A stretch of DNA of 64,000 nt, taken from the IMG/VR virus record IMGVR_UViG_3300011008_002712; one strand, written 5' to 3'. The position numbers and the translations under genes are program-made. This document shows, piece after piece, positions 27,975 through 59,003 of the stretch (position 1 is its first letter; every line of letters starts with the position of its first letter). The notes beneath the pieces are model-generated. The model was not told where the DNA came from, made no database searches, and worked only from the letters and a program-made list of their open reading frames with translations. This DNA comes from a virus. Lineage: Duplodnaviria; Caudoviricetes.

Positions 27975-28838
27975 TTAAAAAATTTTGATATCATTTAAAT
28001 CGTAATAATTATATACATATTTATTATTGGAATAACGAGCATATTGATCTTTTATAAAAAGAATCTCTTTATTTGAATAAGAATTTGCAATACTTACAGA
28101 ATCAAATTGAAATGTGAATGGATTGGTTGTAAAAAAATTTGTTATATGCATTAAATTATAGTATGTATTATTTACGTTTGGAAGGCATTCTATATCTTCT
28201 CCAAAAAATAGACAATTTTTAATATTTTCATTATAACTCATATTATGGTAAGAATCTTCAAAATGAATCTTATATTTTCTTGTTGGATCGAATTTGATCA
28301 ACATTGCTTTCATTTTGTTTCTATTAATATCATTAAACATATAATTGCAACTGCCATTAGCATAAGTTGAAAATTCAAAAACGTTATCTACTTCATCATC
28401 AACAGAATCAATGTATGAAATTGATATATTCAATCCAATCATTAACATTTTTGTTATGCCTAAATTTTTTCTTGGAGCAATTAAAATAATATCATTACCA
28501 TCTTTGGTGACTCTACTATCAAACAAATTATTTAATGCATTAACAGCATGCTGAATATTATATAAATTTATGTAATAATTAGCATTTGCAAACTTTACAT
28601 CAAAAATTTTATATACATAAGACATATCAATTTGATATGTCTTATTTTTAGACAGATATCTGAATCCAGAATCAAATGGAGAAAAATGTTCATCAATTAG
28701 CAAATATTTAAACGTGCCATCGTCTAATTTTGCTTTAATTAATTTTTGCCCCTGTGGAAAAGTTTTATAATCATCGTACATGGAACAAGATATGATTTTA
28801 TCATTTTGTATTTTTAAAAAATGTCCCATATTAATCAC
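27975..28838 (-). CDS. Tail-fibre partner protein, paralogue of 31053..31886
   Basis: Shared AP...G.TKM...GLN.S, KF.P...Y.I.F.DS and YNYY motifs. Confidence 0.65.
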   Translation of the reverse strand: MINMGHFLKIQNDKIISCSMYDDYKTFPQGQKLIKAKLDDGTFKYLLIDEHFSPFDSGFRYLSKNKTYQIDMSYVYKIFDVKFANANYYINLYNIQHAVNALNNLFDSRVTKDGNDIILIAPRKNLGITKMLMIGLNISISYIDSVDDEVDNVFEFSTYANGSCNYMFNDINRNKMKAMLIKFDPTRKYKIHFEDSYHNMSYNENIKNCLFFGEDIECLPNVNNTYYNLMHITNFFTTNPFTFQFDSVSIANSYSNKEILFIKDQYARYSNNKYVYNYYDLNDIKIF

Positions 28839-31066
28839 TCCACTGTTTTTACTTCACTTCCAATACTTTCCCACATTTCGTTTGTCGCGTCATTTTCAGA
28901 AGTTACCATATCAAAGTAATCGTCTACTTCCCATACTTTATCCCATACAAATTCTTTTCCTAATGGCATTATATTACCATCATCATCGACTTCCCATGAA
29001 TCATTATCTATGATCGTTCCTTCTCCCACAGGAACAAGTCCGTCATCGGTTGTTTCCCAGCTGTCATTACTTAGATCGCCTTTGCATGGCATGAAATCTC
29101 CGTAAACATCTTTTTCCCAAACTACGTCATGTGCTCTAGCAGAAGTTGTTGGCATAAGATTTTCTTGTATATCATAATCCCATGTTTTATTTTCAATAGA
29201 TACAACATAATCAATGTTTGAATCTTCTGGCCTAAAAATTAATTTATTTTTTGCAACATAACCAACTTTTTTAATAACAAGATCTTCTTCATATGGACGT
29301 TCAAACCAAATTTCACCATCTTGTCCAACATAGCATCCACATCCATCATGTTCGTCTGTCGGTAATATATATATTCCGTATGTTAATACATTTATGTTAT
29401 TTTCACTATCTGGTTCGTTTAATGCTAACGCAAGGTTTTGGCAAAGAACTTCATTTCTGTTATCAGCCAATCTATAAGAACCGCTATTATAAGTAAGCAG
29501 TTGCATTGGAACACACGTTTGTTTCTTATATATTTTTGATGCATGAATCGTGTCAGTATCTAAACTTGCAACAATTCGTTTCATCTCATTTAATTCACTT
29601 AAGATATTTTCTATTTCTGGAGTTATGCCCGTAACTCCTTCACCAGATACTTCTTCTACCCAAATTTTACCGCCTGGAATATAAAATGAATCAGTAACAC
29701 TAATCTCATTAGCAGAAATAGACTTTGCTGTAATTCCACCAGATTTTACAGAAATATTTTCATCAATTCCAATTTTATCAGATTCAGAACTTGTTACGAT
29801 ATAACCATGTTTATCTGAATTATTGTTTAATACTACTTTTTCTGCTCTTCCATTAGAACCAATCGCATAATCGTGTGTATGTCTAGCTAATGCATTAGAA
29901 GTCACTAATTTATCACTATCTATTGTGCCGCCTGGAGTATCGTCAATTTCTCTTTCTGCAGCTTCATTTATTTTATATCCATTAATTGTTTTATTATTTA
30001 AATTTTGTTCTGATTCAACATCAGCAACTTCATTATATTGAGAATACAATTTCCCATTGCGTTCAAATACAGCGGCGTTTGAATATGTTCTTTGTCTAGT
30101 TCCTTGATTTAAAGTACCTATTAAAAGAATTTTTTCATCAGTATTGTCATTATTAATTGTTTTATTTAAAATATCAGCATCTATAGTGAGACTCATCTCT
30201 CTATTTGCTATTTTCGTAATCAATCCCGACTTAGATACTGTAAATTCTGGAACATAAAATACTTCTCCAGGTTTAATAATCTGATCTAAACCAGGGCCAT
30301 ATGTTCCTTCAGCAACGTTTCCATTAGGATTTGCTGAAATTGATGTATTAATTTTTACATCTTCTGAACCGTCAAAATTAACTGAACCTGAAATGTCTCC
30401 ATATAATGTAAAATTTAATTTATTTGTTAGTTTTTTTGCAGTTTTTGCTTCACCATCTAAATTTCCTTTAAATGTGGTAGCTTTCAATGTTGATTGATCT
30501 ACAGTAATTGAAGTATTGTATTTTAATTTATTTGTTGATATATTGTCAACGCCAACCAAACTCATTTCTGTTGCAAATACTTTTTGAGTTGCTACGGTTA
30601 ATGCATCTCCTGATTCTTTATCTGAAGCTGCATATTTATATTCCATATTATTAAACGATTCTTGCAAATCGTATATTCTTTGCAATAAATTATTAAATTT
30701 TTGTTGATCACTTTCATCATTTAACGTAACAGTGCCAGAAAGGTTTTCTAGTGAAGTTTGCAAATTTGTAAGAGATGCTCTTAATCCACTAAAATCGTTT
30801 AGATTGCTAACAACATGTGAATCAAAATTTGTTTTTAAATTATCTACAAAATTAGTTAATTCTTCTAAATTGTTCTTTAAATATAACGTTCTATTGCTAA
30901 GCTGTTCATGCGGAACATTACTGAATCCATGTTCTCCGCCATGAACATAATCTTCTTCTGTAATTTCATAAATCTTGTCAACCCATTCACTAACTTCATC
31001 AATGTATGAATTCGGAGTCAATAGATCATCAGATTTTACGGCCATGATATTTTCACCCCTTTTCAC
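28835..31066 (-). CDS. Tail fibre protein 2
   Basis: QLSNRTLYLK baseplate-anchor motif, L.GD.SGSV.FDGS, HTHDYA, YIPGGKIW, acidic WExD repeats. Confidence 0.8.
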   Translation of the reverse strand: MKRGENIMAVKSDDLLTPNSYIDEVSEWVDKIYEITEEDYVHGGEHGFSNVPHEQLSNRTLYLKNNLEELTNFVDNLKTNFDSHVVSNLNDFSGLRASLTNLQTSLENLSGTVTLNDESDQQKFNNLLQRIYDLQESFNNMEYKYAASDKESGDALTVATQKVFATEMSLVGVDNISTNKLKYNTSITVDQSTLKATTFKGNLDGEAKTAKKLTNKLNFTLYGDISGSVNFDGSEDVKINTSISANPNGNVAEGTYGPGLDQIIKPGEVFYVPEFTVSKSGLITKIANREMSLTIDADILNKTINNDNTDEKILLIGTLNQGTRQRTYSNAAVFERNGKLYSQYNEVADVESEQNLNNKTINGYKINEAAEREIDDTPGGTIDSDKLVTSNALARHTHDYAIGSNGRAEKVVLNNNSDKHGYIVTSSESDKIGIDENISVKSGGITAKSISANEISVTDSFYIPGGKIWVEEVSGEGVTGITPEIENILSELNEMKRIVASLDTDTIHASKIYKKQTCVPMQLLTYNSGSYRLADNRNEVLCQNLALALNEPDSENNINVLTYGIYILPTDEHDGCGCYVGQDGEIWFERPYEEDLVIKKVGYVAKNKLIFRPEDSNIDYVVSIENKTWDYDIQENLMPTTSARAHDVVWEKDVYGDFMPCKGDLSNDSWETTDDGLVPVGEGTIIDNDSWEVDDDGNIMPLGKEFVWDKVWEVDDYFDMVTSENDATNEMWESIGSEVKTVE

Positions 31067-31886
31067 ATATCGGTTGTTGCAAAAGATAATAATTATAAGA
31101 TGTATTTTCTTTTTTCAAATAGTTATTTTTTGCAAAGTTGATATATTTCATTTGCTCTGCATATTGCCCAATTTTATTTATGACGTGCTTATTTTCATCA
31201 TACAAATAATATTCATCTGTTAAAATCAATCTTTTATAATCTCCAGATGTTTCTTTTAATTGCTCTACTTCATATCCAATAATAATAAAATTTTTTACCA
31301 TTTCATTGCTATAATTTAACGATTTAAATGAATCATTAAATGAAATCAAATAATTTTTTTCAGGAACAAATTTTACTAACATCGAACGAGATAATAAATT
31401 ATCTTTTTTATAAATTTTATCTGACAAACCATTGTAAGTTGTTGTCCAGGTTGTATCGTTATATGTTAATGATACATTTAATCCAGTAATAAACATTTTT
31501 GTCAGTCCAGATAATGTCATTGGAGCTTTAAATAAAACTCCATTTTCTTTCAATTTAACATGAAACTCGCCAAACATTCCAATGAGTAATTTATATAATG
31601 TTTGATACGAAGTCAACGGAATAAATAAATTGCCTCCTGGAAAATACTTATTGACAACATTAATTGGCAAAGAAGTGCATATCTGATATTTATTATTCTC
31701 AATTAATGCTCTGAGCGATGAATCATATTCGTCACTTAATCTATCTAATGGAACATAATAAGTATTTCCATCAATATTTAAAGATAGGCATTTGTTTGCG
31801 ACAAAATGATTTTTTGACGAATATGCTATACATGATATATATTTATTGATTTTTTCATTATATATATGAACAATCATATTAATCAC
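31053..31886 (-). CDS. Tail-fibre partner protein, paralogue of 27975..28838
   Basis: Motifs shared with 27975..28838; lies directly downstream of fibre 1. Confidence 0.65.
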   Translation of the reverse strand: MINMIVHIYNEKINKYISCIAYSSKNHFVANKCLSLNIDGNTYYVPLDRLSDEYDSSLRALIENNKYQICTSLPINVVNKYFPGGNLFIPLTSYQTLYKLLIGMFGEFHVKLKENGVLFKAPMTLSGLTKMFITGLNVSLTYNDTTWTTTYNGLSDKIYKKDNLLSRSMLVKFVPEKNYLISFNDSFKSLNYSNEMVKNFIIIGYEVEQLKETSGDYKRLILTDEYYLYDENKHVINKIGQYAEQMKYINFAKNNYLKKENTSYNYYLLQQPICEKG

Positions 31887-34020
31887 CAGAACTTATAGAT
31901 TCTATCGCTGGAGTTATATTGCCATTTTCATCAAATTTCCACGTATTATTTTCTCTGCCTTCTTCAGAAGGAGTAAAATCATCTAATTCATCGTGTTCCC
32001 ACATTGAATCATATGAATATTTTTCCTTTAATGTAAGATTTCCAAATTCATCAGTCTCAAAAGTTGTTAATAAATTTTCGTCTTCATCAAATGACATTGG
32101 CATTATTGATGATGTATCTAAAACTTCCCAATAATCGTTGGATGTGCAATATTGCGCTGGCATTACATCGCCTTCATCATCAACTTCCCACATATTGTCA
32201 GTTTCAACATCATCTTTAGGCATAAGATTGCGCATATCGTCCATTTGCCAGACATAGTTTGAATTATCAGAATATATTCTGTTTAATGAACGTTCTAGAG
32301 AATCTAGTCTTTCAGCTGTAGATTCGTCTCCAGGATTAAATATTAAATAATTTCTTCTAACATAGCCAATTTTTCTTATTACTATATCATCATCCACTGG
32401 TTTGCCGTATATAATATCGCCTTGTTTTCCAACATATGCGTCTGCGCCATCGTAGTAATTTTCTCCAATGTTAAACGCGCCCAATGTCATAACAGACATA
32501 ACTTTATTTTCACTATTTTCAAGAGCAATAGCTAAATTTTTTGAAGAATTTTTAGATGAATTATCAGCAAGAACATACCCATCAGAATGGTATGATAATA
32601 GTTGACCTGCTTGGCATTCCATTTCTTCATTATGAAGCTTTTCAGTAGAAACTCTTTTAACATAATCATCTGGATTGAGAAAATCTCCTGGCAACAGATT
32701 TCCGCCAGAATCTTCACTTGGCTCAACATTTTCTATCCAAATTTTACCACCTGGAATATACATATTTTCCGTTGCCATTAATGTCTTGCTAATCAATGAA
32801 TCGTTAGTTATAGATACACTTGAAATGTATAATTTGTTGTTTTTATTAATGACAACTCTATAAGATTCATCCAATTCTGCTGGAGAAATTTCAATTGTTT
32901 CTGCTTCTCCAGATGGATTTTTTGAAGAAGCATAATTGTGAGTGTGACGAGCAACAGCATCGGACGTAATTAAACTATTACTTCCAACAGTTCCTCCAAC
33001 TGTTTTATCAACAGTATATTCTATTGCATCATTTGGAATATATCCATTGATTGTCTTATTCAACAAATCTTGTCTTTCGTTTAAAGTTACTACCTGATCA
33101 TTATTTGAATATAAATGATTTTCTTTTGCATAAACGCCAGATTGACTATATGTCGTTGCATATCTATTTTGAGAAGATGCACCAACAACATATATTTTTC
33201 TTGCATCTTGTGTAGCAGAAATAGAATTATTTGTTCCAAGATTTGATGGAAGTTGAACTACTCTGTTTTGAATACGAGTAATTATACCAGTAGCGTTAAC
33301 AGTTATAGATGGGACAATAATACTTCCATCTAACGGCAATGTATAATTTGACGCCTCACCATATTCTCCTGGAGAAACATTTTGTTCTTGTAAAGATGTT
33401 ATTATATTGATGTCATTGTTTCCAGAAAAATTAGCACTACCTCTCACATCTCCACTTAAAGAAATATTTGGAGAATGACTTAATGATTCAGCAGCTGCAG
33501 CTTCACCATCTAAATATCCATGAAATACATCTGCATATAAATCATTTTCTTCCATATATATTTGTGGATTTCTCTTTACGTTATTTATATGCGATTGATC
33601 GGTTCCAAGTAATGATAATTTATTTACTGGATCATCAACTATATTTACTTCAGCAGCTGGACCAGCAGGTTTAGAAGAACCAGCATAATTATGCGTATGA
33701 TTTTGCAAAAGCAATTCTAAATCAGATACGTCTTTCAATAATTTGTTTACTGCTTTTACAACATCGTCTGACGTGCTTATTGTAGAAGAAGATGCACCTT
33801 CTCCGATGACAGCTCTTATTTGATTAACTCTTTTTGTCAATTCTTCAATTTGAATATCAGTATCATCTTTCACGGAAGATAAATAATTGCTTAAATTATT
33901 TAAAGCATTATTCAAATATCTAGTTCTATTTGCCAATTGAAGATTAGCAACATCGTTATTGTCATCTACTCTAGATATTGCTGGTGAATAAATATTATCT
34001 TCTACTAAATATCCTGTCAT
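31879..34020 (-). CDS. Tail fibre protein 1
   Basis: QLANRTRYLN, two HTHNYA motifs, LSGDVRGSANFSG, YIPGGKIW, acidic WExD repeats. Confidence 0.8.
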   Translation of the reverse strand: MTGYLVEDNIYSPAISRVDDNNDVANLQLANRTRYLNNALNNLSNYLSSVKDDTDIQIEELTKRVNQIRAVIGEGASSSTISTSDDVVKAVNKLLKDVSDLELLLQNHTHNYAGSSKPAGPAAEVNIVDDPVNKLSLLGTDQSHINNVKRNPQIYMEENDLYADVFHGYLDGEAAAAESLSHSPNISLSGDVRGSANFSGNNDINIITSLQEQNVSPGEYGEASNYTLPLDGSIIVPSITVNATGIITRIQNRVVQLPSNLGTNNSISATQDARKIYVVGASSQNRYATTYSQSGVYAKENHLYSNNDQVVTLNERQDLLNKTINGYIPNDAIEYTVDKTVGGTVGSNSLITSDAVARHTHNYASSKNPSGEAETIEISPAELDESYRVVINKNNKLYISSVSITNDSLISKTLMATENMYIPGGKIWIENVEPSEDSGGNLLPGDFLNPDDYVKRVSTEKLHNEEMECQAGQLLSYHSDGYVLADNSSKNSSKNLAIALENSENKVMSVMTLGAFNIGENYYDGADAYVGKQGDIIYGKPVDDDIVIRKIGYVRRNYLIFNPGDESTAERLDSLERSLNRIYSDNSNYVWQMDDMRNLMPKDDVETDNMWEVDDEGDVMPAQYCTSNDYWEVLDTSSIMPMSFDEDENLLTTFETDEFGNLTLKEKYSYDSMWEHDELDDFTPSEEGRENNTWKFDENGNITPAIESISSGD

Positions 34021-35990
34021 TAAGTCTCACCTGCCTTTTTATCAAAATTTTCTTCTAAATCTCCTTTCTCATAAGGATTTATTTTAACATTCATATAATA
34101 ATATCTTTCAGGAGCATATTTGTGTTTTCCATCATGACGTATTTTTTTATTATATGAATATTCGTTTTTAATAATCAATTTTTCGTCATATGTAAAATTA
34201 TTTGTATGTTTATCAATTATTTTGTGTGCTTTAATAGAAATATTATCTAAAAACGCACAAGTCCAATCTATTTTAGAATGTTTCATGACTTCCCATCTAA
34301 TTAAAGCATAATCTTGATTCATATATGTTTGCTCAAAATGATACCAATTAGATGAACTATTTTTTACTTTATGTCCAAGCTTAAAATCATAAAACATATT
34401 TAATCTATCTTTTGATGTTTTTGCTAAAAATTTATAATCATATTTTAATGTAAAACATTCTGGAATATCATTTTCATGTATCAATAATACTCCAACATCA
34501 TGATAATTTAAATGATCACATACCCACACTGTATCTCTATTAAACTGAAATCTTATTTCTTCTTTATTAAACAAATCGTATCTATAAAAATCTTTATGCA
34601 AATGCCATAAATTTATATCATAAAAATCTGATGGCGATTTATAAAATTTTTCATCTTCATAGTATGGACCAATTAAAGATATGTTTTGATATTCTATCCT
34701 AATATCTTCATCACAAAAATCATATGTAGGAAAAATAGCAAATACCCACGATGAATTGCTTGCTAAATTTTCTATATCTATAACATATTCTTCCACGCTA
34801 TTATATGGCTCAAATGTTATAATTTTATATGTATCATCAACATCTGTAATATATTTATCATCCTGTTTAAAATACAATTTTAATTCTTTTATATTGTTCG
34901 GCCACTGAAGATTAAAAGATATATGCATTTTTCTTTTTCCAGGCTCAAATTTCAAATTATATATATCATCTTTATAAAAAGGTTTATATTGAATAATTTT
35001 TACATCTGAATTTTTATTCCAAAAATATTTATCTGGATAATCTTTGTGATCATTATCTTTATCTTGTTTAAATTTTTTAGAACGAATATATGGTTTTAAA
35101 AAATATTGTCTTTCATCTGGAAAGAAAAAACGATTGTCTTTATCAAAGTATAGATCTTCGTGCCAATATGAAATAGATGGAACGTGATCATGATTAACTT
35201 TAAAAATTACTTTTCCAAAATTATCATCATTTATATCATACTTTGCATATAAATAATCTATTGTTTTAAAGTCATTATCATTATTTTCTAAATATCTATG
35301 TATTCTATATTCAAAGTTTATATCTTTTGGAGTATGATCTAGAACTGGAATATAAACATCTATACAATCTATCATCAGAACCTCATCTAGAAGCCCAATA
35401 TATTGAATCATATATGTATATATTCTTCCATCATCTAAATCATTGTCGTAAAGTTCTAGTGACTTAGTTTCAGCTAATAATTCAAAATCTGAAATATCAT
35501 TTTTTTTATATATCTTAAAATAATGATCGAAATCAAATTTTATGTCTTTCCAAGATAATGTTTTTGTATCTAAATTGTAAGTCAAGTTTGAAGAGAGATC
35601 TGATTGAAATTTTGTATCATATATGTCATGTTTTCTGCTTCCGCAATTCTTGCACCATCTTCCAAAAATTAATGTTGGAGACATTGCGTTATAAGTATTG
35701 TATACTACAGATTCTTCTCCAATCTTATGCAAAGCCTTTTTATATATATCATCATTATAACTTAAATATTGACCAAGCAATTTATATTTTGTTTTTAAAT
35801 TATTACTTTCTAAAACGTTATTCAAATGATAACCATTTACCAGCAACGATTCTAACCTTTTAATTCCTTCTTGGTCTGAAAATGATTTAAGGTTATTGAA
35901 TTGCTCATCTAGTACCTTGCATATTTCACAATTTGGATTTGATTCGTATTTATTTTTACTAATTTCTAATACGTGTTTTGACAATTTCAT
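34020..35990 (-). CDS. Putative baseplate/tail protein with beta-sandwich (FN3-like) segments
   Basis: LSWK..YFKIYK..DNDLDDGRIYTY FN3-like motif; upstream of and coupled to fibre 1. Confidence 0.55.
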   Translation of the reverse strand: MKLSKHVLEISKNKYESNPNCEICKVLDEQFNNLKSFSDQEGIKRLESLLVNGYHLNNVLESNNLKTKYKLLGQYLSYNDDIYKKALHKIGEESVVYNTYNAMSPTLIFGRWCKNCGSRKHDIYDTKFQSDLSSNLTYNLDTKTLSWKDIKFDFDHYFKIYKKNDISDFELLAETKSLELYDNDLDDGRIYTYMIQYIGLLDEVLMIDCIDVYIPVLDHTPKDINFEYRIHRYLENNDNDFKTIDYLYAKYDINDDNFGKVIFKVNHDHVPSISYWHEDLYFDKDNRFFFPDERQYFLKPYIRSKKFKQDKDNDHKDYPDKYFWNKNSDVKIIQYKPFYKDDIYNLKFEPGKRKMHISFNLQWPNNIKELKLYFKQDDKYITDVDDTYKIITFEPYNSVEEYVIDIENLASNSSWVFAIFPTYDFCDEDIRIEYQNISLIGPYYEDEKFYKSPSDFYDINLWHLHKDFYRYDLFNKEEIRFQFNRDTVWVCDHLNYHDVGVLLIHENDIPECFTLKYDYKFLAKTSKDRLNMFYDFKLGHKVKNSSSNWYHFEQTYMNQDYALIRWEVMKHSKIDWTCAFLDNISIKAHKIIDKHTNNFTYDEKLIIKNEYSYNKKIRHDGKHKYAPERYYYMNVKINPYEKGDLEENFDKKAGET

Positions 35991-36878: not shown

Positions 36879-36908
36879 AAGTAGTTGGTAAAAATTTACC
36901 AACTACTT
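36879..36908. terminator. Bidirectional terminator
   Basis: AAGTAGTTGGTAAA..TTTACCAACTACTT between convergent genes. Confidence 0.8.
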
Positions 36909-37200
36909 ATTTGATATATACATCTATTTGATTTTTTCTAAAAAAGTCAGTATATTCCATGTTGCTGTATCGTTCTTTTATTTTGTATTCTATGTCACAT
37001 ATAGTATTTTGATTTAATACACACCATAACGATTCATATAAAACGTCTTGTGCTATATCAAAAATCCAACAAATGTTGGAATAATCCTTGTCGCTGACTT
37101 CATTAACTTCTAAAGTCAAAGTTGATTTATCACTAATCAAAAAAATGTCAAAATTATATACATCAAAGTTTTTCATATCTTTAACTATCATTTTTATCAT
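36907..37200 (-). CDS. hypothetical protein, last gene of the rSAM operon
   Basis: 97 aa, 5 nt downstream of the preceding gene. Confidence 0.65.
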   Translation of the reverse strand: MIKMIVKDMKNFDVYNFDIFLISDKSTLTLEVNEVSDKDYSNICWIFDIAQDVLYESLWCVLNQNTICDIEYKIKERYSNMEYTDFFRKNQIDVYIK

Positions 37201-37205
37201 AACTA

Positions 37206-37634
37206 CTAATGGTGAGACATATAAAAAATATGCTCCATTTTTTTAAACGCACCTCCCCTATCCATTAATTGATCAAATCTTCCATTTTCTGAATAAAATT
37301 CACATGTTTGATATAGTTGTTTGTTTAATGTTCTAGCTGAAACCAATTCACTAGCGTATTTTCTGCTAATTTTTTTCAATTCATTTCTTGTTAGATTGCG
37401 CCCATCTTGGATTTCATAAAAAATGTCATACATAAGTTCGTCTATTAAAGATTCTTGAGAGATTTTTCTTGATTCTGTTTTTAATGTTTTAAGTAATTCT
37501 TCTGCATACGGTTTTACATCTTCACTCAACCATTCAGTAAGTTCATCTTGCGTTAATTCACTAATATCATTTTCTAACGCCAATACATAGCTTGATGAAG
37601 ATGAATTTGTAACGAAGTCATTTCTTATTTTCAT
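37206..37634 (-). CDS. FVTNSSSSS-motif protein 4
   Basis: MKIRNDFVTNSSSSSYVL...SHH. Confidence 0.85.
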   Translation of the reverse strand: MKIRNDFVTNSSSSSYVLALENDISELTQDELTEWLSEDVKPYAEELLKTLKTESRKISQESLIDELMYDIFYEIQDGRNLTRNELKKISRKYASELVSARTLNKQLYQTCEFYSENGRFDQLMDRGGAFKKMEHIFYMSHH

Positions 37635-37636
37635 TT

Positions 37637-38107
37637 TTAATGTCCTTCTACCAAAATAATGTTAGAATCTTTAGTATGTTCTCTTATTTCTTCTTGATAT
37701 TCACAATAAGGAATAAACACAATTGAATTCCCGCCATTTACTTCATTTTTTATTTTTTTGAATAGTTTATTATCGAAAAATAGTGATATGTCATAGCAAT
37801 CGATAAAAATTTCGCGCTGCATCAAAAGAAATAATTTTATTTGTGCGTAATTCATCTTTAAAGAATCAAGAAAACATACAAACTCAGAATAATCTTCAAG
37901 TTCATATGGTTCGGCATCATAAAACATGTTATAAATGTAATTTATATAGTCGCTTTGTGAAATTATTTTATCTTTATTTTTATTTACATATACATCAAAA
38001 CGATTCCTGTGAATAGAATCAAGAAAAACATTTATTTCTTCATCATTAAATGATAAAACATAGCTAGACGACGATGAATTTGTCACAAAATCATTTCTAA
38101 TTTTCAT
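37637..38107 (-). CDS. FVTNSSSSS-motif protein 3
   Basis: MKIRNDFVTNSSSSSYVL...EGH; GAGG RBS. Confidence 0.85.
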   Translation of the reverse strand: MKIRNDFVTNSSSSSYVLSFNDEEINVFLDSIHRNRFDVYVNKNKDKIISQSDYINYIYNMFYDAEPYELEDYSEFVCFLDSLKMNYAQIKLFLLMQREIFIDCYDISLFFDNKLFKKIKNEVNGGNSIVFIPYCEYQEEIREHTKDSNIILVEGH

Positions 38108-38129
38108 ATCGCTACCTCTTAAATCTATT

Positions 38130-38570
38130 CTAGTAATTATTTTCTTCTAAGATAACTCCACTATGTTTAGATATTGCATATCTAACATCGGGATTGTAAT
38201 TATTGTCAACAGTGATACTATAAACAAATTTATCATTATTTAATTGTTCTTTAATTTTTTCATAACTCGAATAACTGATGTTATCAGAGATTATCGTAAT
38301 ATCACCGCTTAGAAGTAACAAAAACATCATTTGTTGCCTTGTCATTTTTAATTCTTTTGCAAATTTAATGGAATCCAAATCACTATTGTTATTGACAAAC
38401 TCTTCAAATGTTTCCCAATCATGTTCTATATTATAGATAAAATCGAAATAATCTTCTATTGATCTAAGTTCAACATGATGAAAATCAAATGTATCATCTA
38501 TTGGGTCATCAAAAGCAACTATAAACGATGAACTAGATGAATTAGTTATAAAATCTGAGCGTAATTTCAT
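38130..38570 (-). CDS. FITNSSSSS-motif protein 2
   Basis: MKLRSDFITNSSSSSFIV; GGAGGA RBS. Confidence 0.85.
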   Translation of the reverse strand: MKLRSDFITNSSSSSFIVAFDDPIDDTFDFHHVELRSIEDYFDFIYNIEHDWETFEEFVNNNSDLDSIKFAKELKMTRQQMMFLLLLSGDITIISDNISYSSYEKIKEQLNNDKFVYSITVDNNYNPDVRYAISKHSGVILEENNY

Positions 38571-38609
38571 TTTAATAAAATCCTCCGATTTAAAAATTTT
38601 ATTATGAAA

Positions 38610-39752
38610 TCATTTTCTGTTAATGGAATTACACAAAACTATTTTATTTTTTATGGGGCAACCACCCATACAATTTTCTCTTTTAGTGCATTGAGGACAT
38701 GCGTTTCTCATATGATTTCTAAAATTGTCGAAAACGTCTGAATCCCATGCTTCTTGTATAGAGTTATTTCTAAGAGAAATCCCCCATTTTAATCCTTGGT
38801 CAAAACTGCAAGGAACCATTGTCATATTTGCTGATATATAAGCGCTATATCTTCCACCTTCGCACGTATCTATAGAATTGAAATCAATATTTTTAGAAAA
38901 ATTTAATACTGCTGGAACAGAGCAAGAATCAAATCCTATTTTGAATGGATGCTTTTTAGATGTCACCAAATCAAAAAATTGTTTGATTTTATTGTCATCT
39001 TCTTCAAGCGTCAACATATTTTCTATCTTACCGAGTCCAACTGGCTTATATAACAAGAAAATAATAGCATTTACTTTATTCTCTTCAAAGTTTCTTGTTT
39101 GTTCTTTATTGTTGCTATCAACAAACGTCAATTCATGTTTTTCCAATAAACCGATAGCTTCATCAATTGTTTCTTTTGACAAAACATAATGAATATTAGT
39201 TTTGCATCCGGCATGAATAAATTTATCCAATGCATCCACAGTGAATTGTTGTGCATACCAAGAAACAGCAACGGCACCACAGTACTTTTTTGTTACTTCT
39301 ACAGCATGATCAGTTAATTCAATTCCAGCTGTAGTATAATTAGGCACTATTCCATTCTCTCTAGTATATTTGCATATTTCTTCAAAATATTGATGATCGT
39401 TTGGATTGCCAGCTCCTCCTAATGCAATTTGCATTAATCCATGCTTTGCACCTTCATCTACTATCTTCTTATAATCCTCCAACTTCATATCATTGTCTGG
39501 ATTATATGGTCTTGCGCCCTGATAGCAGCCAGATCTTTTTCCACCAGCTTTACAAATTCCTTTAGAAGCTGCCTTGCATCCGCCCATAATACCAACATCC
39601 AACAATCCTGGAAACGAACGCATAAATGGATCAACATTCGTATCTTTTCCATTTTCTATAATGCCGGTTCTCATATATTTTCCAGAATTTCTGTCAAAAA
39701 TTTCCAAGAATTTATTTTTTTTATCAACAAATTTAACAATATCATTTTTCAT
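38610..39752 (-). CDS. Radical SAM protein with SPASM domain and non-canonical CX7CX8C motif
   Basis: C-KAASKGI-C-KAGGKRSG-C-YQ; QIALGGAGNP; PNYTT; SPASM CEGG..PCSF..CPQCTKRENCMGGC. Confidence 0.9.
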   Translation of the reverse strand: MKNDIVKFVDKKNKFLEIFDRNSGKYMRTGIIENGKDTNVDPFMRSFPGLLDVGIMGGCKAASKGICKAGGKRSGCYQGARPYNPDNDMKLEDYKKIVDEGAKHGLMQIALGGAGNPNDHQYFEEICKYTRENGIVPNYTTAGIELTDHAVEVTKKYCGAVAVSWYAQQFTVDALDKFIHAGCKTNIHYVLSKETIDEAIGLLEKHELTFVDSNNKEQTRNFEENKVNAIIFLLYKPVGLGKIENMLTLEEDDNKIKQFFDLVTSKKHPFKIGFDSCSVPAVLNFSKNIDFNSIDTCEGGRYSAYISANMTMVPCSFDQGLKWGISLRNNSIQEAWDSDVFDNFRNHMRNACPQCTKRENCMGGCPIKNKIVLCNSINRK

Positions 39753-39776
39753 TCAGCATCATCCTTCCTTTTGTCT

Positions 39777-39808
39777 ATTTTATCACGCAAACAACAAAAT
39801 GTACATAG
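39777..39808 (-). promoter_or_regulatory. Early-type sigmaA promoter of the rSAM operon
   Basis: CTATGTACA-N17-TAAAAT with TG extension, a variant of the repeated CTATTTACA promoter. Confidence 0.6.
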
Positions 39809-39811
39809 CAT

Positions 39812-39855
39812 TAACAAAAATGTAAGAAAGATTTCGCTTTCTTACATTTTTGTTA
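39812..39855 (-). terminator. Long hairpin terminator
   Basis: TAACAAAAATGTAAGAAAG..CTTTCTTACATTTTTGTTA. Confidence 0.75.
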
Positions 39856-40332
39856 TTACTTTAGATTCGCTTTATTCTTATTCAAAAAATCTTTGAATTC
39901 ATCAAAATCTTTGAATCTATTTAAAATTTCATTTTTTATCGTATCATCGCTTTTTTGCAATTCAATGTTTTTATACATTTCAATATCATCTGTTGATATT
40001 TGCACGAATGAACAAATTGGGCACAAGATAGGTGGAATTTCATATCTAATTTCATCATGAACTTCTTCAATTAGTTCTTCAGCTGTTCCTTCAAAATTTC
40101 TAATTTCATGCTTATCTACTTCGCAGCAATTTTCTAATTCTTTTTTTAATTCTTCTACATCAATGTTGTTAAAAGATATATGTTCATCGCAAAAAATACT
40201 TCCGCATTTATCGCATTCATTTAATCCAAAATCTCTAAAATCGACATCATAACCTGATTCTTCCCTGCCGCAGATATCGCACACATAACTTGATGATGAA
40301 GAATTTGTTACAAAATCATTTCTAATCTTCAT
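39856..40332 (-). CDS. FVTNSSSSS-motif protein 1 with Zn-finger
   Basis: MKIRNDFVTNSSSSSYVCDICG..CDKCG..CDEH..CPIC. Confidence 0.85.
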   Translation of the reverse strand: MKIRNDFVTNSSSSSYVCDICGREESGYDVDFRDFGLNECDKCGSIFCDEHISFNNIDVEELKKELENCCEVDKHEIRNFEGTAEELIEEVHDEIRYEIPPILCPICSFVQISTDDIEMYKNIELQKSDDTIKNEILNRFKDFDEFKDFLNKNKANLK

Positions 40333-40432: not shown

Positions 40433-41804
40433 GTGAACGTACCACCGCCTCTATAGGCGTGGTTTCCTGCTTCAACGAGAACAGCACTGCTTCTCCGAAG
40501 AGTTGTGGCGACTTACACTCTCTCCGCAGGCGTAGATTCCCGTGCGACCCACGGTACTCTATGAGTTACATTAGGCGGTGGTTATGCGCCTAGCTTCCTC
40601 TCTAATATTTATTGCGGCGTTCTTATCTCTGTTGTGATGACCGCTACATTTTGGGCAATCCCATTCACGAACAGATAAGTCTTTAGTTTCGTTATTTTGA
40701 TAGCCGCAGATATGGCAAATCTGACTACTTGGGAACCATTTGTCTATCTTGACAAGCTGTTTCCCTTGCCATGCAAGTTTGTATTCCAATATGTTTGTGA
40801 ATATATTCCAACCATTATCAGCCACAGATTTGCCAAAACTGAACTTACCGCCTTTCTTGTGTTTAGCCATAGCTTTGACGCTAATATCCTCAATGCCTAT
40901 GGCATCATAACGGTCTACCAAGTAGCAGGCTTTTTTGTGCAGAAAGTCACGGCGTTGATTTGCGACCTTCTCATGAAGCGTTGCCACCCGAAGCCTCTGT
41001 TTATCTCGATTATGACTGCCTTTTTGTCTTTTGGACAACTTTCTTTGTGCCTTGGCTAATCTTTTCTCGGCTTTCCTCAAGAAATTTGGATAGTTCGCAT
41101 CATCCTCATCGGAAGCAACATACAAACCGTGCATAGTAAAGTCAAGTCCAAGAAAGTTCTTCGGTATTATGGGGAGTATTTGGTTTTCATACTCTACAAG
41201 AATACTGATGTAATATTTCTCTGATGGTGTCTTGCTTATGGTTACTGTCTTTATAGTGCTATTTTCCATCAGTGGACGGTGCAGACATAGCTTGACCCAA
41301 CCTATTTTAGGTAGCTTGATCTTGTTTTCTTTGATTCTTACAGTACCATTTTGGTTGTTCGTAGAATACGAAGCATGGCCTGTCTTCTTCGACTTGAAAC
41401 GCGGTTTGCCAAAATGCTTGCGATTCTTCCAGAAGTTGTTGTAAGCCTGATTTAGATTTAGTTGAGCATTGGCGAGAGCTAAACTATCTACTTCCTTCAG
41501 CCAAGGAAATTCAAATTTGTATTGTGCAGGGGTGTTGTTCAGTTTCTTGCCTGTCTCTTTGTAGTAGTCAATGCGGTCACTAAGCATCTTGTTATAGATG
41601 AATCTAACACAACCAAAAGTCTTAGCAAATATAATTCTTTGTTCAGTTGTTGGGTATAGTCTTATCTGTATGCCTTATTCACTATAATCACCGCCTCTCA
41701 CATATAATTTTATCATAAATGAGTCACAAAGTAATTGTCTGACTCAATTACTTACGTAAATTTGCCAGGCCAACCTCTTATGTTGGGGATGAAGGTTGGT
41801 TGCG
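40433..41804 (-). mobile_element. Non-autonomous IS200/IS605-family (IS1341-type, tnpB-only) element
   Basis: GC-richer block; left-end hairpin CCAACCT..AGGTTGG after TTTAA; right-end hairpin CCAC-GCCT..AGGC-GGTGG ending TTCAC; no tnpA. Confidence 0.85.
40571..41682 (-). pseudogene. tnpB: TnpB RNA-guided endonuclease with a 1-nt frameshift at codon 6
   Basis: RBS + GTG AAT AAG GCA TAC AGA TAA; a second frame gives IRLYPTTEQ..FGCVRFIYN. RuvC residues GLD, IED and RD.NAA and the Zn ribbon CHICG..CPKC are intact. Confidence 0.85.
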
Positions 41805-57653: not shown

Positions 57654-59003
57654 TCAAGCCCTGACATTCCAGATTCGTTCATAGATCGGAACAAACTTTT
57701 CTTTCAGTTCTTCGAATCTCAGATAAAGAGTATCTTCCTTCCCATCATTCTTGAATTTCCGAACGTTTTCGTTATAGAAAGAAGATGTGTAATAGAGATA
57801 CTGATAATAAAACATGAAGAATTCCATTTTCTTTCGAACAACAGGATTCTTTACGAGGAACGCCGACTTGGAATCATAGTCCTTGTAATCTTCAGGAGAA
57901 ACAAAAGCATAATATTCATCCCAGAGTTTTGTTCCTCTAAAAGGCATCAGGAAATTTCCACAAACCATTTCAGGTTGTAATTCTTGGAATCTATCTATCA
58001 GTCTTCTGTAGAAATCAATTCCTTTTTCTTTGCCAATGATTTTTAGAGGATTCACGATGAATGAAAGATAAGTAAATATTCCATACTTCTTCAAAAGCTT
58101 TACGGCTTCACTCAATTTCTTATTCTTAGAATAATCAACAGTAATATCTTCCAATCCAAGACAAACCATATAAACATTATTTTCTTTGAAATATTTAACC
58201 ATGTCTTCGTTTAGAAGATTTGCTGAAGCAAAAAGATAAATTCTTGCTCCTGTTCGATTTATGATGGATAGTCGTTCTTTCCAATCTTTCTGGAGAGGGA
58301 AATTCTCATCCCTGATAAAAAGATAGACATTTTCACCTTTGTCCAATCTTTCTTTTGCTTCTTCTTTCAGAATCTCAACTTCTTTCTCTATAAGAGAGAT
58401 CGGTTTGGATTCCAAAGATAAACACATTAATGGAGAGCAACAAAAATCACACCTCATAGGACAACTCTGCGAAGTGTTGATAGATATTGCCAATTCATGC
58501 GGAAGTTTCTCAGGGATAATCTGTTGATTAAAAGAAGCATCGTACAAATCATACCGAGGAACATTTCGGTAATTCGTGATTCCTTTTACAACTTGACCTT
58601 CCTGCTGAATGGTAGAAAAGAAATCATCGCAAGTCCCGACTATGATTTTCTCAGCATACATTTCGAAATCTTCTGGGAAAGTTGTAGGATGATAACCACC
58701 AACTATGATTTTCTTTCTGTCATGTTTTGAAGCCCAGGATTTGAATTCATCGTATCCTGAGATGTAGACAGCACAGGCGTAATACATCACGTCGCCGTCA
58801 TTGAAATCAATGTTATGCAGTGAATATTCCACATTATCTCCTTGCGGAAGAACAGTCAGGAGAGAAGGTTCTAATCCCAGATTTCCCTGCTGTTCTGGGA
58901 ACGACAACCCAATAATACGATTTTTCTTTCTTTTTGGTAGAATGTCTTCAAAAACAACTTCTTTCCAAGTTTTTATCATTGCATTACCAACCCTATCTTG
59001 CAA
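57654..59003 (-). CDS. Cobalamin-binding radical SAM protein (class B methylase-like)
   Basis: IIVGGYHPTT B12-domain motif; TSQSCPMRCDFCC (CX3CX2C); DENF; LGLED; PFRGTKLW. Confidence 0.85.
   Translation of the reverse strand: MQDRVGNAMIKTWKEVVFEDILPKRKKNRIIGLSFPEQQGNLGLEPSLLTVLPQGDNVEYSLHNIDFNDGDVMYYACAVYISGYDEFKSWASKHDRKKIIVGGYHPTTFPEDFEMYAEKIIVGTCDDFFSTIQQEGQVVKGITNYRNVPRYDLYDASFNQQIIPEKLPHELAISINTSQSCPMRCDFCCSPLMCLSLESKPISLIEKEVEILKEEAKERLDKGENVYLFIRDENFPLQKDWKERLSIINRTGARIYLFASANLLNEDMVKYFKENNVYMVCLGLEDITVDYSKNKKLSEAVKLLKKYGIFTYLSFIVNPLKIIGKEKGIDFYRRLIDRFQELQPEMVCGNFLMPFRGTKLWDEYYAFVSPEDYKDYDSKSAFLVKNPVVRKKMEFFMFYYQYLYYTSSFYNENVRKFKNDGKEDTLYLRFEELKEKFVPIYERIWNVRA

Follow-up and report, generated by a model that had tools for sequence, protein, structure and literature searches.

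Most known roles of radical S-adenosylmethionine (SAM) enzymes with a SPASM domain lie in the making of peptide natural products, in cofactor synthesis and in the maturation of sulfatases, and members of this group carry out two-electron oxidations of peptide or protein substrates. Two described arrangements lie closest to the one considered here. In logic, it is that of the anaerobic sulfatase-maturating enzymes (anSME/AtsB) and their sulfatases, where one radical SAM/SPASM enzyme with two auxiliary clusters serves many whole-protein clients through a short motif close to their N-terminus. As regards gene layout, it is that of the maturases of ribosomally synthesized and post-translationally modified peptides (RiPPs) with shared leaders (SuiB/StrB, SkfB, CteB, PqqE, MftC), where a conserved N-terminal recognition piece is followed by a variable remainder and the genes are adjacent. 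The present report concerns a cassette from a phage, IMG/VR virus record IMGVR_UViG_3300011008_002712, in which a SPASM gene lies among the genes for four proteins (hereafter clients) that start with the same short peptide (hereafter the tag). The DNA analyzed, which we call the window, is 64,000 nucleotides long and corresponds to bases 351,998-415,997 of the 416,024-bp record, read on the reverse strand (29.7% G+C; CheckV completeness 99%).

We suggest that the enzyme and the tag make up a radical SAM/SPASM system that would modify proteins and that is widespread and apparently undescribed; full-text literature searches with motif strings and with SPASM and phage terms found no description of the pair. 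Co-occurrence, the unrelated architectures of the tagged proteins, a model of the complex and co-variation together support the view that the tag is a portable docking tag for this enzyme family, as the first-pass annotation of the window had supposed, and we are confident that the enzyme binds it. That the client then undergoes a covalent change is probable, and the case for placing that change within the tag itself is evenly balanced.

The tag, its clients and its enzyme

The cassette is a row of genes on the minus strand: a 158-aa client, the 380-aa enzyme, clients of 146, 156 and 142 aa, and an untagged 97-aa open reading frame (ORF). ORF coordinates and comparison of the tags thus bear out the first-pass annotation, which had described four proteins of 142-158 aa with a common 17-residue start, one encoded upstream and three downstream of a SPASM gene. 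The span it gave, 36907-40332, holds for the five-gene row, with the qualification that its start takes in the 97-aa ORF, which had no family match among Pfam, NCBIfam and PHROG profiles and was a singleton when neighboring ORFs were clustered across loci. The early-type promoter that it assigned to the enzyme gene found no confirmation: the 103-bp gap ahead of that gene holds a 19-pair hairpin and one promoter-like site, and such sites number 23, against 24.7 +/- 4.1 in shuffled sequence. The features of the locus are as follows.

39856-40332, minus strand: tagged client of 158 aa, zinc-ribbon family (cluster 2), a family found in 46 of 81 enzyme loci
40282-40332, minus strand: 17-codon segment coding for the tag of the 158-aa client (tag comparison and DNA alignment)
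39812-39855, no strand: inverted repeat of 19 pairs, between the 158-aa client gene and the enzyme gene (hairpin search)
38610-39752, minus strand: radical SAM/SPASM enzyme of 380 aa (Pfam, phrog_7293, homologs)
39663-39686, minus strand: enzyme residues 23-30, the strand predicted to pair with the tag (lowest-error contacts of the complex model)
39525-39578, minus strand: non-canonical cluster motif C59-x7-C67-x8-C76-YQ, replacing CX3CX2C (read from the translation)
39201-39203, minus strand: codon of K184, which co-varies with tag D6 (modeled interface and co-variation)
38631-38864, minus strand: SPASM auxiliary-cluster region, residues 297-374, with CX2CX5CX3C (Pfam and alignment)
38130-38570, minus strand: tagged client of 146 aa, cluster 1; tag coded at 38520-38570
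37637-38107, minus strand: tagged client of 156 aa, cluster 1, C-terminus EGH; tag coded at 38057-38107
37206-37634, minus strand: tagged client of 142 aa, C-terminus MSHH, divergent member of the SHH family; tag coded at 37584-37634
36907-37200, minus strand: untagged 97-aa ORF closing the gene row (ORF call)

All four clients of the window start MK(I/L)R(N/S)DF(V/I)TNSSSSS(Y/F), with M1, K2, R4, D6, F7, T9, N10 and S11-S15 invariant, and the general consensus of the tag is M-K-h-R-x-D-(F/Y)-V-T-N-S-S-S-S-S-(F/Y)-h, over 17-20 residues. When the first 57 bases (19 codons) of all copies are aligned, synonymous differences appear, such as serine codons of the TCN and AGY types, which argues for selection on the peptide and not on the DNA, as had been claimed. 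Among 312 distinct tagged proteins T9, N10 and S11-S13 are invariant in every one, and the remaining sequence diverges freely; these five residues are stricter than residues 2-6, which form a strand in the model described below. At E <= 1e-3, 12,527 protein clusters (50% identity) match a 30-column tag profile, and in 145 of the best 150 clusters the match begins at residue 1. The family phrog_7397 aligns with the clients only over positions 1-35 of its 170, which is the tag (E 9.6e-5 to 0.033).

Beyond about residue 20 nothing is common to all clients. The families that recur at enzyme loci are one of about 156 aa ending ...LEHxIxP...SHH, in which the C-terminal SHH is present in 102 of 120 members, a zinc-ribbon family of about 190 aa, and others of 90-255 aa. 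The SHH and EGH C-termini that the first-pass annotation reported for two of the window clients are there, and its statement that the four share almost no sequence outside the tag is sound for the wider system only, since the three downstream clients are, by sequence comparison, distant paralogs and divergent members of the SHH family. Stripped of their tags, the 146-aa and 156-aa clients match each other by BLASTP (E 2e-6, 29% identity), and the 142-aa client matches the '...SHH-COOH' family profile with an hhalign probability of 97%, a profile whose 73 rows include that same protein. The upstream 158-aa client belongs to the separate zinc-ribbon family.

In bacteria, tagged proteins reach 809 aa and carry BspA-type leucine-rich repeats (LRR; LRR_5), BRCT or TIR domains. 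Three of them, identified by domain search, are:

L167:1186-3414: bacterial tagged TIR protein, 743 aa
L145:6311-7534: bacterial tagged BRCT protein, 408 aa
L138:7496-9922: bacterial tagged BRCT and BspA-type LRR protein, 809 aa

The defense models of PADLOC match the bacterial tagged proteins only in their TIR and BRCT parts, the TIR part through the SAVED_TIR models, and match neither the enzyme nor any of the four window clients. A handful of proteins in the databases have two tags (P0122, P0121, P0123, P0130 and P0166). In P0122 the tags stand in tandem at the N-terminus, and in P0121 the second is internal, as if two neighboring clients had been fused. Such proteins may mean that a free N-terminus is not strictly required, or they may be artefacts of gene calling.

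The enzyme is the product of the only SPASM gene in the whole genome. It matches the Pfam SPASM family (PF13186) over residues 297-356 with 29.3 bits against a cut-off of 21.5, and TIGR04085 (SPASM) with 27.0 bits against 27. Residues 19-348 align with positions 36-346 of the 384 in phrog_7293, a radical SAM-like family of unknown function (E 4.3e-25), and among solved sequences the sactisynthase SkfB comes nearest (E 3.5e-5). Homologs number 4548 proteins at E <= 1e-3, many of them about 50% identical to the enzyme, and the contigs that encode them are as long as 504 kb. Aligned with one another, 20 homologs keep C59 and C76 without exception and C67 at 90% conservation or more, with variable spacing (x5-7, x3-8). 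The same alignment has the glycine-rich, GGE-like SAM-binding motif that follows strand 2 as an invariant L111-G-G-x-G115 within ALGGAGNP, with GGxG(N/D)P conserved across the aligned homologs, and the SPASM cysteines C297, C315, C352-x2-C355-x5-C361-x3-C365 and C374 are all invariant. Residues 1-50 are conserved and predicted to contact the tag. None of the named SPASM maturase families in NCBIfam, GeoRSP and ScmF among them, is over its cut-off; the best is TIGR04317 with 37.4 bits against 380, and PqqE (34 against 381) and MftC (28.6 against 265) also fall far short; the anSME and FxsB models are absent among the NCBIfam matches listed for the enzyme. Nor was a PqqD-like RiPP recognition element (RRE) detected, there being no Pfam match at E <= 0.1 in the enzyme outside its SPASM and Radical_SAM regions.

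Some homologs have unusual reading frames. In viral record G406 (L248:1453-3813, minus strand) the enzyme homolog is a 786-aa ORF split by an intein-like insert with the flanks ...GKMFQ / C...SHN / CAMGGAGD..., which lies inside the SAM-binding GGxG motif, and record G431 is split alike; judged from sequence, this placement suggests a site that matters. In viral record G422 (L247:1458-3317) the enzyme frame continues from about 260 upstream residues that resemble a GIY-YIG homing endonuclease, either because the two genes are fused or because the stop between them is missing. A bacterial homolog (G005:C71:73416-74471) has one in-frame TGA and may owe it to sequencing error, to recoding of the codon or to decay into a pseudogene.

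Co-occurrence of the enzyme and the tag

Viral loci were gathered with the enzyme alignment as query, a single-sequence query having given none. Tagged ORFs, one to eight of them and on the same strand, are present at 77 of the 80 viral loci chosen by enzyme, and they mostly lie directly downstream, starting less than 100 bases from the enzyme stop codon; the 3 loci that have none are contigs cut near the enzyme gene. Clustering of the neighboring ORFs at enzyme loci left the tagged families as the only ones common across lineages, and it revealed no protease, exporter or PqqD-like gene conserved beside the enzyme. Selection in the opposite direction gave the same association: among 29 viral records chosen by tag the enzyme was found in 22, including 5 of 5 at >=90% completeness, and the other 7 are fragments.

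Bacterial loci chosen by enzyme, mostly from Clostridia, have tagged ORFs directly upstream or downstream in 71 cases out of 80. We also searched 400 whole genomes of the class Clostridia, drawn evenly. Both partners occurred in 10 genomes (a count that includes G265, whose degenerate tag fell below threshold and was spotted by eye), the enzyme alone in 0, a weak tag alone in 1 and neither in 389 (Fisher p = 4e-19). A tagged ORF lies within about 2 kb of the enzyme in all 10 of the enzyme-bearing genomes, and in five enzyme-positive genomes every tag match sits at the enzyme locus. The first-pass annotation had proposed just such a comparison of a motif profile with the enzyme, and had named tagged proteins commonly lacking the enzyme as the outcome that would count against its idea. 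The association holds in phages and in bacteria and in both directions, and the one weak case among the 400 genomes is far from common.

Neighboring genes are one form of this association. A six-frame scan of all 416,024 bp found nine tagged genes, four adjoining the enzyme and five dispersed, at genome positions 21,484, 127,578, 261,599, 261,943 and 344,253. Among T4-like phages of enterobacteria, 170 GenBank records have an enzyme homolog, 26% identical over 90% of its length. RB16, RB43, Lw1, KP27 and Miller have exactly two tagged genes each, about 20 kb from the enzyme homolog, and neither tag nor enzyme was found in T4, RB69 or RB49. In RB16 (HM134276.1) the tagged genes RB16p106 and RB16p111 (L172:1111-1578 and L172:4989-5501) bracket RB16p109, a 739-aa gene with a von Willebrand factor A (vWA) domain, and the C-terminus of RB16p111, ...SKSHH, resembles the SHH family of the window.

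The tag might instead be a sorting or packaging signal of the kind found on T4 internal proteins, or a plain structural strand, its link to the enzyme being indirect. Like the peptide of the T4 proteins IPI-III, it is N-terminal on unrelated small phage proteins, and the cassette adjoins tail-fiber genes in this phage lineage. Against this stands the near-perfect two-way co-occurrence with one enzyme family, bacterial chromosomes included, and direct contact is favored both by the score of the docked model and by an enzyme residue that co-varies with the tag (see below). As for the structural strand, it has some basis in the predicted fold of a client. An AlphaFold2 (AF2) model of the 156-aa window client, built with 23 sequences, was unusable (predicted local distance difference test, pLDDT, 56), and a typical member of the SHH family was therefore folded in its place, with 73 sequences (pLDDT 92, predicted template modeling score 0.83). 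The model has a three-stranded sheet whose first strand is made by residues 13-20, the other two being 124-131 and 149-154. Residues 1-10, with pLDDT <50 and no secondary structure, are disordered and lie outside the client fold, and the tag is thus predicted to be a free tail over its most conserved part. We consider the sorting signal and the structural strand, taken together, the least likely of the alternatives weighed here.

The same model has little to say on two further points. The disorder of residues 1-10 speaks neither for nor against a joint site of the C-terminal histidines and the N-terminus. Foldseek gave no match to the client model at E <= 0.001, VIA-align gave only helical-hairpin matches (Z <= 6.4) and the ESM Atlas gave only its own unnamed family, so that the model lacks a clear relative in the PDB or the ESM Atlas and no known fold can be named from it, and these failed searches do not establish a new one. 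We also tried to explain the tag as the phosphate-binding hairpin of an ASKHA/RNase H-like fold, and rejected this on the grounds that D6 is replaceable, that residues 1-10 lie outside the fold and that the attached domains are unrelated.

Predicted docking of the tag and the proposed chemistry

To model the complex, we combined a 20-row enzyme alignment and a 30-residue tag in 9 rows with SAM and three 4Fe-4S clusters. The interaction prediction score from aligned errors (ipSAE) was 0.92 (runs 0.88, 0.93 and 0.92), and of three controls the best scored 0.02. In calibration, 58 of 80 solved complexes and 2 of 110 mismatched pairs attained this mark, figures that are only rough here, as our own small alignments and the ligands are not covered by them. 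The pLDDT of the partner was about 67, and contacts agreed between runs to at least 95%. This prediction, another that the first-pass annotation had proposed, places tag residues 1-20 all at the interface. Residues 2-7 pair with enzyme residues 23-28, including the invariant G24, Y26 and R28; residues 7-8 contact enzyme residues 108, 110, 136, 138, 159 and 160; and the rest of the modeled interface (184-188, 228-233, 271-279, 292-299 and 315-317) makes up the cleft that separates the barrel from the SPASM domain.

Sequence variation at one pair of positions is what would be expected if D6 of the tag contacts K184 of the enzyme, and this evidence is independent of the structure predictor. With D6 tags, enzyme residue 184 is K or R in 93 of 93 loci; with G6 tags it is T in 19 of 19; with S6 tags it is T in 2 loci and K in 2. 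Counted over 53 lineages (<80% identity), D6 goes with K/R184 in 48, a residue other than D6 goes with T184 in 4 and with K184 in 1, and D6 with a non-basic residue in 0 (p = 1.7e-5). On a FastTree tree T184 appears at three separate places, each beside K-bearing sisters. RB16, far outside the compared set, has G6 tags and Q at the position aligned to 184.

A strong predicted interface and many clients per enzyme would also suit an adaptor, in which the tag plugs LRR, BRCT, zinc-ribbon and SHH modules into the enzyme and so steers or regulates its action on a third party, for instance a protein or nucleic acid of the host. LRR_5, BRCT and TIR are indeed typical binding modules. However, many clients have just 90-120 aa and no recognizable binding fold, and the modeled tag fills the barrel/SPASM cleft, where it would block a third substrate. 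This cleft is where the substrates of solved SPASM enzymes bind. We therefore regard the adaptor as clearly unlikely.

We lean, by a little, toward the reading that a radical SAM/SPASM enzyme whose three-cysteine site has been rebuilt takes whole proteins by their N-terminal tag and modifies them oxidatively within it. The enzyme would recognize its clients by reading the 17-20-residue tag at the N-terminus of whole proteins. Tag residues 2-7 would add as a strand to enzyme residues 23-28, with D6 opposite K184; F7 and V8 would then lie over the barrel strands that bear the SAM-binding motifs, and residues 9-20 between the barrel and the SPASM domain. A hydrogen would be abstracted from a residue in the invariant F7-S15 stretch, the two auxiliary clusters would accept the electron, and each such event would oxidize the client, with an expected mass shift of -2 Da. 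We favor two candidate chemistries: cross-linking of the aromatic residue 7 with a side chain close by, or conversion of a serine to formylglycine. A thioether (sactionine) is excluded as the general chemistry, the tag having no cysteine. One enzyme would serve all nine tagged proteins of the phage, the four adjacent and the five dispersed. For the catalysis we rely on the conserved cluster ligands and SAM motif, on the chemistry of the SPASM relatives and on the strict invariance of T9, N10 and S11-S13. A more specific version, in which this dedicated enzyme installs a radical-derived cross-link or aldehyde in the portable tag and many unrelated proteins of phages and anaerobic bacteria, TIR, LRR and BRCT proteins included, need it for their function, is quite possible, and we put it a shade short of even. 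The pair would then be a maturation module of a general kind, 'write once, use on any protein'.

The foremost rival holds that the tag is only a handle, a leader-like dock left unchanged, and that the enzyme modifies the variable body of the client or acts promiscuously, for example by epimerization. RiPP systems usually employ their conserved N-terminal piece in this way, as a handle that is not itself the modified site. Residues 2-7 bind in our model by strand addition, as leaders do, and co-variation implies contact and nothing more. Against this rival, no sequence beyond about residue 20 is common to all clients; the modeled interface extends over residues 1-20, with 7-8 on the barrel strands; the residues beyond the paired strand, T9, N10 and S11-S13, are more invariant than residues 2-6 within it; and the Pfam scan detected no RRE/PqqD domain in the enzyme. 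On balance, a tag that serves as a handle only is unlikely.

Oxidative modification within the tag has, for its part, several points to answer, in addition to the usual role of RiPP leaders and the rough calibration mentioned above. The complex model, which was read for contacts between enzyme and tag, and the co-variation are evidence of binding and not of modification. In lineage L062, K184 occurs together with S6 in the tag. Adjacency is not obligatory, since five of the nine tagged genes of the window phage and both of those in RB16 lie far from the enzyme gene. The enzyme has CX7CX8C in place of the CX3CX2C by which the radical SAM superfamily is recognized, and it scores 24.8 bits, under the 29.5 cut-off, with Pfam Radical_SAM (PF04055), over residues 76-158 only, a cut-off that some homologs pass; its catalytic competence is therefore assumed.

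These last two features, together with the variable spacing of the cysteines across the family and a weak match (21.9 bits) to the 'pseudo-SAM/SPASM' family TIGR04347, could point to a pseudo-enzyme whose rebuilt cysteine site does not cleave SAM, and whose role toward tagged proteins is that of a receptor, chaperone or assembly factor. Yet the three cysteines, GGxG(N/D)P and all SPASM cysteines are kept across homologs that number in the thousands at about 50% identity, and an intein lies in the GGxG motif of one homolog. Non-canonical spacing is, besides, a property of active radical SAM enzymes too, ThiC, HmdB and QueE being examples. We judge a pseudo-enzyme very unlikely, and continue to favor oxidative modification of the tag.

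Genomic surroundings and comparison with known systems

Megablast of the locus against GenBank phages gave no match. In the nearest relative, the 504-kb contig L009, the zinc-ribbon client lies downstream of the enzyme gene, as against upstream in the window, and because it is on the other side there, the client order in the window may have been rearranged. Tail-fiber-like genes occupy window positions 28835-35990 (clusters 128, 129 and 164) and keep their place in L009 and L010, which are the two nearest relatives, so the cassette abuts a fiber module in this phage lineage. Directly upstream of the cassette is a TnpB/IS605 OrfB gene (40571-41587, minus strand; OrfB_IS605 95.9 bits, Cas12f1-like TNB 80.2 bits), in a stretch with a raised G+C content of 36.8%. 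A second radical SAM gene, of 449 aa, is found at 57654-59003 on the minus strand, with weak PhpK/BchE matches (about 35 bits). It was considered as a part of the system and rejected, being of the B12-binding class in appearance and unrelated.

The tag spans megaphages, T4-like coliphages and bacteria of the gut and rumen, in more than 12,000 protein clusters and on unrelated folds. If it is modified, this would be a new post-translational chemistry on whole proteins, and thousands of phage genes now called 'hypothetical' would gain a first functional handle. The enzyme and tag could also serve as a portable pair for protein engineering. The system is directly testable, in that RB16, RB43 and Lw1 grow on laboratory E. 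coli.

Among described systems, the capsid-targeting sequence of T4 IPI-III is alike in being a short common N-terminal peptide on unrelated small phage proteins. In contrast to the tag, it has no such enzyme partner and is cut off by the prohead protease, and T4 itself has neither tag nor enzyme. In the FxSxx-COOH system, the radical SAM/SPASM enzyme FxsB is encoded beside small, fast-diverging proteins that keep a short terminal motif of F and S; that motif is C-terminal and is released by a zincin peptidase, and the system belongs to the actinobacterial vWA-MoxR/AP-ATPase conflict systems (Kaur et al. 2020, PMC7159879). The tag, unlike this motif, is N-terminal, and our enzyme has no match to the FxsB model.

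The RiPP maturases share with the present system the strand addition of the recognition peptide, which is predicted here. Unlike their peptides, however, the clients of this system range from 90 to more than 800 aa, have domains and carry a tag of 17-20 residues, and there is neither a detected PqqD-like RRE nor a conserved protease or exporter nearby. The sulfatases and their anSME offer the closest parallel in logic. There, a serine or cysteine motif is hit before folding by a two-electron oxidation, which is the kind of step that would take place on the tag. The sulfatase motif is C/S-x-P/A-x-R and not MKxRxDFVTNSSSSS, and the maturating enzyme has the canonical CX3CX2C. The clients of anSME form one enzyme superfamily, whereas the tag described here stands at residue 1 of unrelated folds.

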